Source: a virus (Duplodnaviria; Heunggongvirae; Uroviricota; Caudoviricetes). From it: a DNA stretch of 25,436 bases. Below are positions 1-25,436 of the stretch, in pieces; within the stretch, counting starts at the first letter, position 1; each line of letters begins with the position of its first letter. The notes beneath the pieces are model-generated. The model saw only the letters and a list, made by a program, of their open reading frames with translations. It was not told the origin of the DNA and made no database searches. The stretch is from IMG/VR virus record IMGVR_UViG_2850784384_000006. One strand, written 5' to 3'. A program made the position numbers and the translations under genes.

Positions 1-276
1 TTACCGACTGCGGCCTGAGTTTTTTAAGTGACGTAAAATCGTGTTGAGGCCAACGCCCATAATGCGGGCAGTTGCCCGGCATCCAACGCCATTCATGGCC
101 ATATCAATGATTTTCTGGTGCGTACCGGGTTGAGAAGCGGTGTAAGTGAACTGCAGTTGCCATGTTTTACGGCAGTGAGAGCAGAGATAGCGCTGATGTC
201 CGGCGGTGCTTTTGCCGTTACGCACCACCCCGTCAGTAGCTGAACAGGAGGGACAGCTGATAGAAACAGAAGCCAC
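1..276 (-). CDS. insA: IS1 InsA (transposition regulator / N-terminal part of InsAB' transposase)
   Basis: 91-aa [46 protein letters not shown]... matches the IS1 InsA sequence as I remember it, with zinc-finger-like CxxC...CxxC; stop codon at 1..3. Confidence 0.9.
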
Positions 277-393: not shown

Positions 394-1395
394 ATGCATA
401 AGAGCAACTGCTTTGATACGGCAAGGCTTGTGGCAGCTATGATGGTTCTAATCAGTCACCACTACGCGCTCTCTGGACAACTCGAGCCGTATATATTCGG
501 CTTTGAAAGTGCTGGCGGCATTGCTGTTATCATATTCTTTTCCATATCAGGATACCTGATTTCAAAATCAGCAATCAGAAGTGATTCCTTTATTGATTTC
601 ATGGCTAAAAGAGCAAGAAGAATATTCCCTGCTCTTGTCCCTTGCTCTGTACTGACGTATTTTTTATTTGGGTGGATGCTTAACAACTTCAGTACAGAAT
701 ATTTTAGTCATGACATTATCCGGAAGACCATAAGCTCTATTTTAATGAGTCAGGCTCCAGATGCCGACATTACATCACATTTAATTCATCCCGGTATTAA
801 CGGCAGCTTGTGGACACTACCACTGGAGTTTATGTGTTACATAATAACTGGAGTGGCTGTTGCTCTACTAAAGAGCGGAAAAACGTTCATAGTTATACTA
901 TTGATTTTTGTTTCACTTTCATTAGTTGAAAGTGTATCTGAGAACAAGGATGTAATATTCTCCATTCCAGTATGGCTGTATCCTTTGCGGGGGATGGCTT
1001 TCTTTTTTGGTGCCACTATGGCGATGTATGAGAAATCTTGGAATGTAAGTAATGTGAAAATTTCCGTGATTTCTTTGCTTGCTATGTACGCATACGCGAG
1101 CTATGGCAAAGGCATTGACTATACAATGGCTTGCTATATTCTGGTTTCTTTCTCAACAATAGCTATATGCACATCCTTTGGAGATCCACTGGTTAAGGGT
1201 AGGTTTGATTACTCTTATGGTGTATACATTTATGCATTCCCCGTTCAGCAGGTTATTATAAATACATTGCATATTGGCTTTTACCCTTCGATGTTGTTAA
1301 GTGCCATTGTCGTTCTTTTCTTGGCTCATCTTTCTTGGAATCTAATTGAAAAAAGATTCCTTACACGAAGCTCGCCAAAATTATCCCTGAATTGA
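394..1395 (+). CDS. oac: Acyltransferase family 3 integral membrane protein, O-antigen O-acetyltransferase-like (serotype-converting Oac type)
   Basis: 333-aa ORF, hydrophobic throughout (multi-TM); N-terminal R...HH motif (RLVAAMMVLISHH) and FFSISGYLIS segment typical of acyltransferase-3; length and N-terminus resemble phage Oac as I recall it. Markedly AT-rich versus flanking phage genes. Symbol is tentative. Confidence 0.7.
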   Translation: MHKSNCFDTARLVAAMMVLISHHYALSGQLEPYIFGFESAGGIAVIIFFSISGYLISKSAIRSDSFIDFMAKRARRIFPALVPCSVLTYFLFGWMLNNFSTEYFSHDIIRKTISSILMSQAPDADITSHLIHPGINGSLWTLPLEFMCYIITGVAVALLKSGKTFIVILLIFVSLSLVESVSENKDVIFSIPVWLYPLRGMAFFFGATMAMYEKSWNVSNVKISVISLLAMYAYASYGKGIDYTMACYILVSFSTIAICTSFGDPLVKGRFDYSYGVYIYAFPVQQVIINTLHIGFYPSMLLSAIVVLFLAHLSWNLIEKRFLTRSSPKLSLN

Positions 1396-4759: not shown

Positions 4760-5707
4760 TTATGCCTCGCTTGTTACAGTCGTCTGGCCGTAGATTGTGT
4801 CAATGGAGGAAGTGAAGGTGACGCGACGGCTGGTGCCGTCATAATTGGTATCGAAGGAAAGAATCGACAGAACGCCCGGTGTATCCTGTATGCGTTCGCG
4901 TATAGCCAGGATGTAGACATCTGATCGCTGCTTCCCAAGCACTGACTGAACATACGGCGTGCCTTCCGTCAGATCGAGAAACCACTGACCGCGCCACAGC
5001 TCGAAACGGGTTTTTACGGCCTGGGCGACACTGATACCAGAAGCTGTTACGTCATTCGTTACCATCACCGGCCCAAGCATCGTCGCAGTACCGCCGCTTT
5101 CGCCCATTCCCTGAGACAAGTTGCCATTAATCGTTACGTTGCCGTTCAGCGTGATAGTCGGGGATGTGATTGTCGTTCCACCTTCAGCCGTAGCTGTAAG
5201 CTGGCCCGGTGTTTTAATGGTGATGTTATGTCCTGCGGCGACTTCTACAAACGCCGCACCATCATCGGTTCGCAGCTGCGCGGCGCTGGTACTGATACCG
5301 CTGATTTTCCGTGCTTGCGACTGCGGGCCAACGATGGCGAACGCATCAGATAAGTCATGCTGGCGCGGGTCGACGGTCTCCTGAACGCCGCCGCTCTGCC
5401 ACCAAAAATCGATGCAACGGTCAGCAAAAATCAGGAGGCACTCGTCGCCTTCTTTTACCGGAAAGGTCAGCGTGCAACCGCCGCCGCGCGGGAAGATGAC
5501 CGGCACATCCACCAGCGGTTTTAATTCGGTGGATCCATCGCCAACAATACCGCGTAGCGCCACCTCTACTGTGCAGGTAACAGTCTCAGGATCGAACGAC
5601 TGAATGATGCCGGGCATCGCTACGCGCATCTGGGTAGACACCGAATCGGCAATGGCCTGCGCGGTCTGCTGCTCACCGCCGATCTGTGATTGAGTTGGAA
5701 TTGGCAT
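4760..5707 (-). CDS. Baseplate central spike-like protein (phage Gp138 N-terminal domain type)
   Basis: 315-aa ORF; N-terminal region ...MPGIIQSFDPETVTCTVEVALRG...PLVDVPVIFPRGGG... resembles the Gp138_N OB-fold; Gly/Thr-rich repeats in the middle suggest beta-helix. RBS GGGGG 4 nt before ATG. Confidence 0.6.
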   Translation of the reverse strand: MPIPTQSQIGGEQQTAQAIADSVSTQMRVAMPGIIQSFDPETVTCTVEVALRGIVGDGSTELKPLVDVPVIFPRGGGCTLTFPVKEGDECLLIFADRCIDFWWQSGGVQETVDPRQHDLSDAFAIVGPQSQARKISGISTSAAQLRTDDGAAFVEVAAGHNITIKTPGQLTATAEGGTTITSPTITLNGNVTINGNLSQGMGESGGTATMLGPVMVTNDVTASGISVAQAVKTRFELWRGQWFLDLTEGTPYVQSVLGKQRSDVYILAIRERIQDTPGVLSILSFDTNYDGTSRRVTFTSSIDTIYGQTTVTSEA

Positions 5708-5718
5708 AAAACCCCCAT

Positions 5719-5740
5719 AAAAAAACCAGCCGAAGCTGGT
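5719..5740 (-). terminator. Rho-independent terminator on minus strand, immediately upstream of the spike gene RBS
   Basis: Minus-strand RNA reads ACCAGC-UUCG-GCUGGU followed by seven U (plus-strand A-run 5719..5725); 6-bp stem, tetraloop. Confidence 0.6.
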
Positions 5741-5929
5741 TTGGTATCAATTATCTCTTAGTAACTAAGCTACATCAGTGTGAAGTAAGGCTTTTCCGCT
5801 GCAATGGCACACATTCACAAGGTGTATTAGGATATGTTTGCAACAAGTAAGCATTGAAAATCAATTTCAGCCATGAAGCCGCCATAGAGTGGACCTGCAC
5901 CATCGCATTATTGACTACAGGAGTAACAA

Positions 5930-6220
5930 ATGGGATTTAGATTTCGTAAAAGAATCCGGATTGCGCCCGGACTCGCGATCAACATTAGTAAAAGCGGAGT
6001 AAGCACTTCAATTGGTGGTAAAGGTTCCACCATTAACATCGGGAAAAAAGGCGTAAAGATGACAAATGGCCTTCCCGGCACGGGGCTGTCGCATACCACT
6101 AACCTTTACTCTCCCGGGAAATCGACAGAAAAAAAACAACTTACTCATAAGCAAAAAATAATTAGAAACATCCTGTTCGTAATTATTGTGTTTATAATAA
6201 TTAAAGCTCAATATTTTTGA
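5930..6220 (+). CDS. Small DUF4236-like protein with C-terminal hydrophobic anchor (moron gene)
   Basis: 96-aa ORF MGFRFRKRIRIAPGLAINISKSGVSTSIGGKGSTINIGKKGVKMTNGLPGTGLS... is the characteristic DUF4236 repeat pattern as I recall it; C-terminal IIRNILFVIIVFIIIKAQYF is TM-like. RBS AGGAG at 5918..5922; opposite strand to all flanking phage genes; AT-rich; followed by a terminator. Confidence 0.7.
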   Translation: MGFRFRKRIRIAPGLAINISKSGVSTSIGGKGSTINIGKKGVKMTNGLPGTGLSHTTNLYSPGKSTEKKQLTHKQKIIRNILFVIIVFIIIKAQYF

Positions 6221-6225
6221 CGCAT

Positions 6226-6250
6226 GCCCGCCTATCTGGCGGGCTATTTT
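6226..6250 (+). terminator. Rho-independent terminator for the DUF4236-like gene
   Basis: GCCCGCC-TATCT-GGCGGGC (perfect 7-bp GC stem, 6226..6244) followed by TATTTT, 6 nt after the TGA stop at 6218..6220. Overlaps the stop codon of the convergent minus-strand gene. Confidence 0.65.
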
Positions 6251-6588
6251 ACTTTTCGGCAGTCGTATGTTGCATACTGACGCGGCGAATCCATGCTGGC
6301 TTGCAGCCACTGTGCGTTGAGAATGGCTTTGCCGTTTCGATTGATGTACTCAAGACCAACCCATCTTCCAGGCTGATCGGTAGCCATACGCCAATCCATC
6401 TTGATATTGTTATAATCGCCTTTGTTTTTCAGGAAGGTGATTTTTTGCATTTCTGGCTTTGCGCCATTGATTCTGGCTAAGCCATCATCTGCCCAATGGA
6501 TTTTAAAATCACCACATTGCTGATCCGCAAAAGCGGGTGCTGATATAAGCACCGCGAACACGGTAACAGTGCAAAGTAAATGTCTCAC
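6244..6588 (-). CDS. Small secreted (periplasmic) protein with cleavable signal peptide, function unknown (moron gene)
   Basis: 114-aa ORF with GTG start and SD GAGGTG 6 nt upstream; N-terminus MRHLLCTVTVFAVLISAPAFA/DQQ fits an SPase I signal with AxA site; two Cys in the mature part (possible disulfide). SD overlaps the stop of the upstream hub-like gene, suggesting translational coupling. Confidence 0.6.
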   Translation of the reverse strand: MRHLLCTVTVFAVLISAPAFADQQCGDFKIHWADDGLARINGAKPEMQKITFLKNKGDYNNIKMDWRMATDQPGRWVGLEYINRNGKAILNAQWLQASMDSPRQYATYDCRKVK

Positions 6589-6600
6589 GGCCCCACCTCA

Positions 6601-7665
6601 CTAATTCGTCGTCCCTTGCATTGCTTTCGGGCTATAAAGATCACGAGCGCCACGCGCAAAACACATCAAATCCATGTACCACGCCTGACCTCTGGTGTCG
6701 CCAGTATAGTCGATAGCTTTGACGATATAAACGCCATCCGTCGCAATGCTGGCAGCCTGTGACGTCGTGCCGGTCAGCACACGGTTGCCGTTCTCTTCTG
6801 TTTCGGTGATACGCCCGGGCGACTGTGCTATTTCGCTATTGCCGAGCGTGGCGCGGTACACCGAAGCCTGATCGAGCTGGATAAGACCATTAATACGGAT
6901 GTTTGGGTTTATCAGGCATCGCACGTTTACTCCGCCACCCATCGTTTGTTGCGGCATACCGATCAGGCCAGTATTGGCATTCAACACAATGGCTTCGTGA
7001 ATATATTTATCCTCCGGCACCATCTGGACCTGACCATCCACCAGTTGCCATGTCGCTTTGCACTGCGCAGCAATATTATCCATCACGTTGCGGCTGGATG
7101 AGTAAATCGCGCGGCCACGAGGAAACACGGTATCAGGAAAATCGCCGGTAATGCCCTGTGTCACGCCGAACGCGTTGAAATCCTGCATCGTCGCCCGGTG
7201 CAGATCCGCAACGGTATATCCAGCGGCAAGCGTGGTGATGGTGGTCGCATAGAGGAACGCTTCGTGATCACCAATGGCCTGAATCAACACCCAGGAATCC
7301 GTAATGTTGTCCTTCCCGGTGACGGTGAAGCGAATATCACCGTCAAAAATCAGGCCGTAGTTCTGACCGTTCACCTGCCCTATCTGGTCTGGTGAAATCT
7401 CCCGGGACACACCAACCTGGCTCGCATCAACATCCGGCGCTATACCGTCATACCCGGCAATGATGCGAATTTTGGCAAACTCCTGCCCAAGTATCTTGTT
7501 CGTGGTATCGGTCGAAAGGTTGTAAATTTTCACGTTCGCCACGCGCGGCCAGCGTGTGTCTGCCCACTCGATCTGGAACGTGACCTTAAAGTCAGACAGG
7601 GAAACGCCCTGCCCGTTCTGGTCCAACAGTTGCAGCTCAAAATGGCGCATCCAGTTAAGAGACAT
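6601..7665 (-). CDS. Baseplate hub-like tail protein (late control gene D / Mu gp44-like)
   Basis: 354-aa ORF between the TMP-proximal small tail genes and the spike/J module; assignment by position and general resemblance only. Confidence 0.45.
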   Translation of the reverse strand: MSLNWMRHFELQLLDQNGQGVSLSDFKVTFQIEWADTRWPRVANVKIYNLSTDTTNKILGQEFAKIRIIAGYDGIAPDVDASQVGVSREISPDQIGQVNGQNYGLIFDGDIRFTVTGKDNITDSWVLIQAIGDHEAFLYATTITTLAAGYTVADLHRATMQDFNAFGVTQGITGDFPDTVFPRGRAIYSSSRNVMDNIAAQCKATWQLVDGQVQMVPEDKYIHEAIVLNANTGLIGMPQQTMGGGVNVRCLINPNIRINGLIQLDQASVYRATLGNSEIAQSPGRITETEENGNRVLTGTTSQAASIATDGVYIVKAIDYTGDTRGQAWYMDLMCFARGARDLYSPKAMQGTTN

Positions 7666-23164: not shown

Positions 23165-23430
23165 TCATGGTAGTGGATACGCCATATCTCTTTGCTAAAG
23201 ACCTAAGCCCATTACCTACACTCCCGCGCACATACTCGCGGCGAATGCAGATGACATCGCACTCTTTTAATTTCGCCATTCCGTTCTTTTCACCTGAACG
23301 GTCAGGGTATGAGTTTCTGCCTCGCCTTGACCTGTCACGATTATTGTCAGCGACAGTACCTATAATCAGATGGTCAGGATTCACGCATGATGGATTATCG
23401 CATTTATGCCTAACAACAAGGTCCTTGATG
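23115..23430 (-). pseudogene. HNH homing endonuclease gene, 5'-truncated by IS911-like insertion
   Basis: ORF contains HKCDNPSCVNPDHL (HNH His/Cys/Asn signature) followed by a basic AP2-like region; the first 8 codons of the track ORF 23115..23456, including its GTG start, are encoded by the IS end, so the native N-terminus is missing. Confidence 0.65.
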
Positions 23431-23502
23431 TGAAGTGGCACACTGAATTTGGCCACCTGAACAGAGGTGATATGCTCACCTCAGAACAACACAGGTGCTC
23501 CA

Positions 23503-24671
<1,169 letters not shown>

Positions 24672-24679
24672 CCACTTCA

Positions 24680-25436
24680 AATCCGAAGAAAATTGCCGGA
24701 CAAACCGCTCGCTGACATATCAACGAAAGAGGTGGCAGCAATGCTAAACACCTACGTAGCAGAAGGTAAAGCGGCTTCCGCAAAATTAATCAGGTCAACC
24801 CTTGTTGACGTTTTTCGTGAGGCAATAGCCGAGGGGCATGTAGCAACGAATCCGGTAACAGCAACCCGCACAGCAAAGTCAGAAGTAAGGCGCTCAAGGC
24901 TGACAGCTAATGAGTATGTCGCGATTTACCATGCAGCCGAACCTCTCCCAATCTGGCTGAGGCTAGCAATGGATTTGGCTGTCGTTACAGGGCAGAGAGT
25001 CGGCGATTTGTGCAGAATGAAATGGTCAGACATAAACGACAACCATCTTCACATTGAACAGAGCAAAACAGGGGCTAAGCTCGCCATTCCGCTGACGCTA
25101 ACGATTGACGCGCTCAATATCTCATTGGCTGATACACTACAGAAATGCAGGGAGGCCAGCAGCAGTGAAACTATAATCGCATCAAAGCATCACGATCCGC
25201 TTTCCCCGAAAACAGTATCGAAGTATTTTACAAAGGCGAGAAATGCATCAGGACTCTCATTTGATGGAGACCCGCCAACATTCCATGAACTGCGTAGCCT
25301 GTCGGCGAGGCTATACCGTAATCAGATTGGCGATAAGTTTGCTCAACGTCTTCTCGGACATAAATCAGATTCAATGGCGGCGCGGTATAGGGACAGCCGT
25401 GGACGGGAATGGGACAAAATTGAAATCGACAAATGA
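24680..25436 (+). pseudogene. int: Lambda-type tyrosine integrase, 5'-truncated by IS911-like element (C-terminal about 250 aa retained)
   Basis: Frame open from the IS boundary to TGA at 25434..25436; translation ...RLAMDLAVVTGQRVGDLCRMKWSDI...TFHELRSLSARLY...LLGHKSDSMAARYRDSRGREWDKIEIDK closely resembles the lambda Int catalytic domain (R, H-x-x-R, H, Y). No authentic start: the track ORF begins at a TTG 13 nt after the IS end. Confidence 0.85.

Follow-up and report, generated by a model that had tools for sequence, protein, structure and literature searches.

Phage P1 encodes Sim, a soluble protein of the periplasm that is synthesised with a cleavable signal peptide. Another soluble periplasmic phage protein, T4 Spackle, is a 75-residue alpha-helical bundle with one disulfide, which is expressed from the early genes and inhibits the tail lysozyme (PMC7677548). 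The genes of the outer-membrane lipoproteins Llp and Cor follow immediately after the gene for the receptor-binding protein, and T5 Llp and Cor jam FhuA from the periplasmic side (PMC9586334). We describe here a small gene that could encode a protective envelope protein of a different build, located at positions 6244-6588 of a 25,436-nucleotide stretch (the window) of the virus record IMGVR_UViG_2850784384_000006 (Caudoviricetes, IMG/VR). An earlier reading of the window, made from its letters only (the sequence-only reading), had proposed that the product is a superinfection-exclusion factor, which masks the phage's own receptor in the manner of Llp and Cor, or else a periplasmic inhibitor. 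It gave no strand for the open reading frame, which lies on the minus strand.

Our results give good support to the view that SEN34/Brunovirus-like temperate myoviruses of Enterobacterales have a cargo slot at the junction between the baseplate hub and spike genes, whose first place is regularly taken by the small gene. They equally support that this gene is accessory and moron-like, and that its product is not a virion component. By analogy, superinfection exclusion, or the guarding of progeny from adsorption to debris, by a periplasmic binding or blocking protein appears to be the most probable role, although we propose it tentatively and would put it at somewhat less than an even chance. 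Prophages often encode small exported proteins of unknown function, and a role has been assigned in few cases. The present family was already catalogued as hypothetical (PHROG 3443); new here are its fold assignment, the definition of a terminator-bounded cargo slot between hub and spike, the movement of alleles as cassettes and the tandem arrays.

A small exported protein encoded behind the hub gene

On the sequence evidence, the open reading frame is a real gene, far above chance expectation. RefSeq/PGAP calls the identical 345-nucleotide coding sequence in the 99.8% identical prophage of Escherichia coli TOK-001 (WP_021241719.1), the exact protein is present on at least 1000 public contigs, and its homologues form 86 clusters. 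Pairwise ratios of nonsynonymous to synonymous divergence (dN/dS) of 0.03-0.20 point to purifying selection. The upstream neighbour, called hub-like in the sequence-only reading, is identified as a baseplate hub gene by its PHROG 196 match (Table 1). Between the hub TAG (6603-6601) and the GTG start the sequence reads TGAGGTGGGGCC, which places the Shine-Dalgarno core 5-7 nucleotides before GTG. The GTG start with a good Shine-Dalgarno sequence thus stands as originally described; the described overlap of that sequence with the hub stop does not, as GAGGTG abuts the TAG instead. Hub stop and small-gene start overlap or lie at most 3 nucleotides apart in most homologous loci, so tight coupling to the hub gene, which had been claimed for the window, is a trait of the whole family.

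The N-terminus, MRHLLCTVTVFAVLISAPAFA/DQQC, combines a basic n-region, a hydrophobic core and a small-x-small site in the pattern of a Sec type I signal peptide, a call that we made throughout by heuristic inspection of the n-, h- and c-regions and the AXA site. This pattern, already noted in the sequence-only reading as AFA/DQQ, is kept in 40 of 40 aligned family members, though the signal sequence drifts and the mature part is conserved; all 40 ordinary members have AXA-type cleavage sites and none has a lipobox. The two cysteines noted in the mature part, C25 and C110, hold even in the widest alignment, where only these two residues and L90 are invariant. Two cysteines and one leucine as the sole fixed positions fit a minimal barrel scaffold that is stapled by a disulfide and has a variable surface but, as judged from the alignment, no conserved pocket. 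The AlphaFold2 model is an all-beta barrel with a predicted local distance difference test (pLDDT) score of 85-92, from which the signal segment stands apart as a separate helix of low pLDDT. The product is thus probably Sec-exported with a cleavable signal peptide, and predicted to be a soluble periplasmic barrel with one disulfide.

We class the modelled fold as a putative small barrel of streptavidin-like type and do not call the protein an avidin. Sequence searches of PDB gave weak avidin matches, in which the local likeness of YINRNGKAILNAQWL to avidin FIDRNGKEVLKTMWL is striking. In a PDB profile search, however, avidins reached E 0.4-1 and nanobodies scored equally, and hhalign against single avidin sequences and an avidin alignment gave probabilities of 45-58% (58% with the alignment) over three strands only. 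Avidin membership was rejected on this ground. The alignment with avidin covers beta5-beta7, and the positions matching avidin W70 and W97 vary in the small-protein family, which, together with the short list of invariant residues, indicates that there is no conserved pocket. PF01382 matched none of the 40 members at E up to 10. The mature domain is about 35 residues shorter than avidins, and in contrast to the avidin/streptavidin family (PF01382) and other streptavidin-like or calycin barrels the disulfide lies elsewhere and biotin-contact and pocket residues are not conserved. Since the scores are also not significant and Foldseek gave nothing below E 0.1 against PDB and the viral BFVD, a binder of small ligands of the avidin or lipocalin kind, such as a periplasmic biotin binder, is very improbable.

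Homology searches, which had been suggested together with the sequence-only reading, identified the family and left it without an annotated relative. PHROG 3443 (function unknown) matches over the full length (E 6.9e-46, residues 2-114 to profile positions 2-114 of 115); Pfam and NCBIfam gave no match, in the case of Pfam for all 40 aligned members at E up to 10, and structure comparison ended with the Foldseek result given above. Database entries label the protein hypothetical or, automatically, 'secreted protein', and the small gene is nowhere mentioned in the literature searched, including the SEN34 paper. An exhaustive profile search of 1.84 billion representatives returned only 57 clusters at 50% identity, and a genome scan yielded 31 loci in Escherichia, Salmonella-type phages, Klebsiella, Citrobacter, Enterobacter, Serratia, Yersinia, Pantoea, Rahnella and others. 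By these sequence searches the family is small and restricted to Enterobacterales. Two loci bear Flavobacteriia labels, namely L008 (OM284015.1, 'Elizabethkingia phage EKP1') and L044 ('Chryseobacterium sp. 18061'), with hubs 52-63% identical to the Enterobacterales group. L044 carries the small gene, and its host label may be wrong or its assembly contaminated; the same may apply to EKP1.

Some relatives are larger. Proteins of 290 amino acids, encoded at the same post-hub position (P0088 at 6001-6879 of locus L048, P0107, and P0143-P0152), have a lipoprotein signal peptide with an LSGC or LVSC lipobox, followed by an N-terminal domain of about 175 residues and then the barrel domain. The lipobox, with a residue other than Asp at +2, predicts that these relatives are outer-membrane lipoproteins. 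Their N-terminal domain has no homologues outside these fusions and no Pfam match.

The hub-spike slot and its alleles

In about 45 loci the genes follow one order: tube, chaperone, tape measure with an SLT domain, Dit-like protein, plug, hub and small gene, then 0-1.8 kb of variable cargo, and then spike (gpV-like), sheath initiator, baseplate J, wedge and fibre, the fibre genes lying about 3 kb beyond the small gene. The Rahnella and Pantoea loci have the small gene alone in the hub-spike gap. Providencia phage PSTCR3, in which the hub gene overlaps the spike gene, has nothing between them, and Hafnia phage yong1 and EKP1 have unrelated genes in the gap; the small gene is thus dispensable for virion production. 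The second position of the slot, taken in the window by a convergent DUF4236 gene of low GC content, is filled elsewhere by Phd/Fic (L013), a DNA polymerase III theta-like gene (L014) or a gene for a 145-residue protein without assignment (L010), so that the junction is also a hotspot for toxin-antitoxin and other cargo genes. GC content is about 0.54 in hub and spike versus 0.42-0.47 over positions 5700-6600. Absence from close relatives at the same junction, a downstream terminator and a deviating base composition are all found here, as in morons, a concept reviewed in PMC3594210.

A strong, canonical intrinsic terminator closes the slot in the window, and in 40 of the 45 loci one lies 10-25 nucleotides upstream of the spike start; it is gone where hub and spike overlap. 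Its position within the late tail operon means that the late transcript must read through it for the spike to be expressed, which implies either read-through or antitermination for the spike, or a deliberate down-tuning of the downstream baseplate genes. A second hairpin overlaps the small-gene stop and has its T-run on the plus strand only, so we regard it as the terminator of the convergent DUF4236 gene, and it is probably leaky for minus-strand transcription. The Rfam scan of the slot gave sub-threshold, terminator-driven matches only. One was to isrK, a prophage-borne Hfq-binding small RNA of Salmonella, at 5720-5802 on the minus strand (23.4 bits against a gathering score of 50, E 0.015), a match probably driven by the terminator hairpin.

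The small gene has a history of its own within otherwise uniform tail modules. L031 and L034, for instance, share 96-99% identity in tape measure, Dit, plug, hub and spike but 76% in the mature small protein. Synonymous divergence (dS) between pairs of near-identical modules is 0.15-0.3 for hub and spike versus 1.1-2.9 for the small gene, with dN/dS of at most 0.2. Saturated dS with low dN/dS indicates old alleles that were moved by recombination, and positive selection in situ was rejected on this ground. The last 12 or so hub residues, whose codons also contain the ribosome-binding region of the small gene, co-vary with the small-gene allele, and the exchanged cassette consists of the hub tail plus the small gene. 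Small-gene divergence correlates best with hub divergence (Spearman 0.61), and a search for a cognate partner by co-variation with eight neighbouring tail proteins found none, only a linkage pattern.

Two of the roughly 45 loci contain tandem arrays. Pseudescherichia vulneris (L021, 629-2849; NZ_BBMZ01000043.1) has four divergent copies with a period of about 625 nucleotides, each preceded by a hub 3' remnant of about 65 codons, and Serratia aquatilis (L027, 24-4282; NZ_CP173186.1) has at least six divergent copies, again each with a hub 3' remnant in front, together with an IS256-like transposase. Both arrays lie ahead of the spike gene, and most of their open reading frames are intact, with one frameshifted or truncated copy per array; identity to the query is 30-68%.

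Table 1. Features of the window, with the small gene and its slot first (positions refer to the whole window)
Feature	Position	Strand	Details
Small exported protein, coding sequence	6244..6588	minus	114 amino acids; GTG start at 6588, TAG stop; PHROG 3443
Signal peptide, codons 1-21	6526..6588	minus	predicted cleavage AFA/DQQ; n/h/c-region and AXA heuristic, 40 homologues
Mature domain, 93 amino acids	6247..6525	minus	predicted eight-stranded beta-barrel; probable C25-C110 disulfide
Cysteine codons C25 and C110	6514-6516 and 6259-6261	minus	
Shine-Dalgarno core GAGGTG	6594..6599	minus	directly 3' of hub stop codon (6601-6603)
Baseplate hub gene, E217 gp41-like	6601..7665	minus	PHROG 196 E 3e-82; PF22759 (E217_GP41) E 4e-6, just under that family's cut-off
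Hairpin GCCCGCC-5 nt-GGCGGGC	6226..6244		overlaps small-gene stop; -16.4 kcal/mol, z -3.2
DUF4236 gene, 96 amino acids	5930..6220	plus	convergent; C-terminal hydrophobic segment; PF14020 E 2e-20
Intrinsic terminator, hairpin + T7	5723..5742	minus	closes slot; 16 nt before spike start
Spike (gpV-like) gene	4760..5707	minus	right border of slot; PF18352 E 1e-41; PHROG 120 on C-terminal part
IS1 InsA fragment	1-276		
O-antigen acetyltransferase gene	394-1395		90.7% identical to Sf6 Oac
IS3-family element, two copies	8111-9356 and ~23430-24680		first copy interrupts Dit-like baseplate gene
Dit-like gene remnant, open reading frame	9326-9829		

A proposed periplasmic binding or blocking protein and its rivals

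The small gene is translated right behind the hub gene, in a slot closed by the terminator. In the role that we favour, the signal peptide would be removed, and the barrel, probably stapled by one disulfide, would fold in the periplasm. There, the fixed scaffold with its variable surface might bind or block a target at the cell envelope, possibly an envelope component or a part of the incoming tail tip, and the phage or lysogen could benefit because superinfecting phages would be excluded or progeny protected from debris. A fixed scaffold, a variable surface, long-lived alleles and their occasional accumulation are what we would expect of a binding or blocking protein that carries specificity, and allele polymorphism and tandem arrays suit a protective function of the specificity type. 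The lipoprotein-anchored fusion variants at the same position also count in favour of this role. The proposal of an exclusion factor in the sequence-only reading thus gains from the predicted envelope export, the non-virion nature and the accessory position in a tail cluster, while its specific analogy to Cor and Llp finds no support, in view of the missing lipobox and sequence link and of a location away from the receptor-binding gene. Exclusion in general is plausible, and masking, a block of injection or a mechanism that does not concern phages are all possible. In a bolder version, to which we give little credence, the locus is a polymorphic specificity locus, in which each barrel allele recognises and disarms its counterpart in incoming relatives or in some other envelope attacker, and lysogens gather tandem orphan arrays.

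Several observations weigh against exclusion or progeny protection. The small protein has no homology to any characterised protein in Pfam, NCBIfam, PADLOC or annotated PHROG families, and the PADLOC defence models gave no real match, only Cas11a at chance level (E 0.045). By our estimate, which is not an exact count, about 20 of the 23 or so closest phages carry the gene, and such high occupancy with tight hub coupling would suit a function in the lytic growth of the phage itself as well. A consensus scan for a promoter of the small gene found one promoter-like site, at 6731-6703 inside the hub gene, which is within chance expectation; a dip in third-codon-position entropy over hub codons 321-335 is explained by Trp, Met and two-fold-degenerate codons. 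Once linkage is considered, the alleles show no co-variation with tape measure, Dit, plug, hub, spike or baseplate J, and an identical protein, P0045, is paired with four different fibre genes, so that no cognate phage part is indicated.

The other periplasmic option of the sequence-only reading, an inhibitor, is as compatible with the data as exclusion. In the form of a protein that inhibits an enzyme or acts like an immunity protein, with no connection to the receptor, we consider it unlikely, if a serious candidate: it might block the tape-measure SLT lytic transglycosylase of incoming phages in Spackle-like fashion, or protect against lysozymes, colicins or type VI peptidoglycan effectors. 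The streptavidin-like fold class of SCOP also includes periplasmic protease inhibitors. The tape measures of these phages do carry an SLT domain, the tandem divergent copies with upstream-gene remnants resemble orphan immunity arrays, and the predicted soluble periplasmic state with a disulfide is that of Spackle (PMC7677548). A Spackle-type fold or sequence was not found, the AlphaFold2 model being all-beta and the sequence without a family match, and the known periplasmic inhibitor families and folds searched (MliC/PliC, Ivy, PliG, Inh) did not match the small protein. Masking of the Cor/Llp type, in which the protein, from within the periplasm, would bind the outer-membrane receptor used by its own phage and so make it unusable, strikes us as somewhat more doubtful. 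A small, exported protein with two invariant cysteines, as in Llp and Cor (PMC9586334), encoded inside a tail cluster and having predicted outer-membrane lipoproteins among its 290-residue relatives, would suit it. However, the ordinary members lack a lipobox, and no similarity was found to any annotated PHROG or Pfam family (a sequence link to Cor or Llp was judged by matches to annotated PHROG, Pfam and NCBIfam families, not by direct comparison with their sequences). Moreover, the gene lies between hub and spike, apart from the receptor-binding and fibre genes, and the linkage of P0045 to four fibre genes also tells against masking. Beside the fibre gene of TOK-001 (L001, 303-2274), a relative of this phage, lie a recombinase gene and tail-fibre-assembly genes of opposite orientation, which suggests an invertible host-range switch, and a single mask fits poorly with switchable fibres.

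Two further explanations leave phage-phage conflict aside. A host-fitness or lysogenic-conversion factor, acting in envelope stress, in resistance to serum or host defence, or in colonisation, seems slightly less likely again than receptor masking. The moron-like anatomy agrees with it, as do the intact state of the gene in a decayed, non-inducible prophage remnant with damaged spike and Dit genes and the presence of the conversion gene oac1b elsewhere in that remnant; yet the small gene was never found outside the hub-spike slot in the loci sampled, tight coupling to a late structural gene would be odd for a conversion gene, and the promoter search was without success. A quasi-core gene, not a moron, that serves the phage's own lytic cycle from the periplasm, by lysis tuning or envelope remodelling, is quite improbable in our view. 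Besides the estimated high occupancy, it draws on the constant position first after the hub, with translational coupling, and on the hub-tracking divergence. Its absence from yong1, EKP1 and PSTCR3, the exchange of alleles independently of the remaining tail module and the distance from the lysis genes argue against it, and arrays of several paralogues are hard to reconcile with a housekeeping step.

The favoured exclusion or protection factor, if true, could be one reason why lysogens of Klebsiella, E. coli, Salmonella and Shigella resist related phages, a point of relevance to phage therapy. Should the bolder version with its polymorphic specificity locus hold, the barrels, minimal and avidin-like, would be a new family of periplasmic proteins that give exclusion or immunity allele by allele. 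The family is compact and Enterobacterales-specific, with a clear position and a confident predicted fold, and its population genetics point to a specificity-type envelope function.

Prophage setting and comparison with known systems

The tail module of the window itself is defective. Relative to the intact TOK-001 prophage, a deletion of about 140 nucleotides has fused the spike gene in frame to the sheath initiator gene (junction about 5024-5031), giving 315 amino acids in place of 246 + 117, and the Apex domain match is lost from the fused spike. The two IS3-family copies we take to be IS911 by their ORF-A sequence. The tape measure gene (9829-11844, minus strand) appears mosaic, its centre at 10279-11329 being without a megablast-level match to TOK-001, which is otherwise 94-99% identical, and the fibre end of the TOK-001 module is replaced in the window by oac1b and IS1. 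A non-inducible oac1b prophage remnant has been described from Shigella flexneri serotype 1b (PMC3630932), and IS1, the Oac-like gene, the IS3-family copies and the tail module of the window together match it. For the window itself, the result is thus a modest one, namely an intact accessory gene within the decayed oac1b prophage of Shigella flexneri 1b.

Among known systems, morons and cargo hotspots (HK97/lambda; P2) share with the small gene its dispensability, its place between essential late genes, its lower GC content, its terminator and its variable neighbours. The P2 cargo, such as fun/Z, lies in the tail region. In contrast to typical morons, the small gene has no detected promoter of its own, is translationally coupled to the structural gene upstream and is much more constant in position and occupancy. 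Polymorphic toxin loci of the contact-dependent inhibition (CDI) and Rhs types carry orphan toxin-tip/immunity arrays. The arrays found here are built alike, in tandem units of a 3' remnant of a large upstream gene followed by a small divergent gene, and in both cases alleles are swapped by recombination in the conserved part. The variable hub tail, however, comprises only about 12 residues without a toxin domain and belongs to a structural protein, and arrays were seen in only the two loci described above.

T4 Spackle, which acts after adsorption on the incoming tail tip, resembles the small protein in its cleavable signal peptide, its disulfide and its soluble periplasmic state, which is predicted for the latter, and the phage group of the small gene also has a tail SLT hydrolase domain; the small protein differs in being all-beta in its model and in coming from a late operon of temperate phages. 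T5 Llp and Cor of phi80, T1 and N15 are, like the small protein, small, exported to the envelope, of a two-cysteine or disulfide build, encoded in or by the tail genes and accessory to the virion, and the rare larger relatives of the small protein are lipoprotein fusions. The small protein itself differs from them in its type I signal peptide, its hub-spike location, its larger size (93 residues when mature) and its predicted eight-stranded barrel. Should exclusion or protection be its role, it would form a new structural class beside Llp/Cor, Spackle and Sim.
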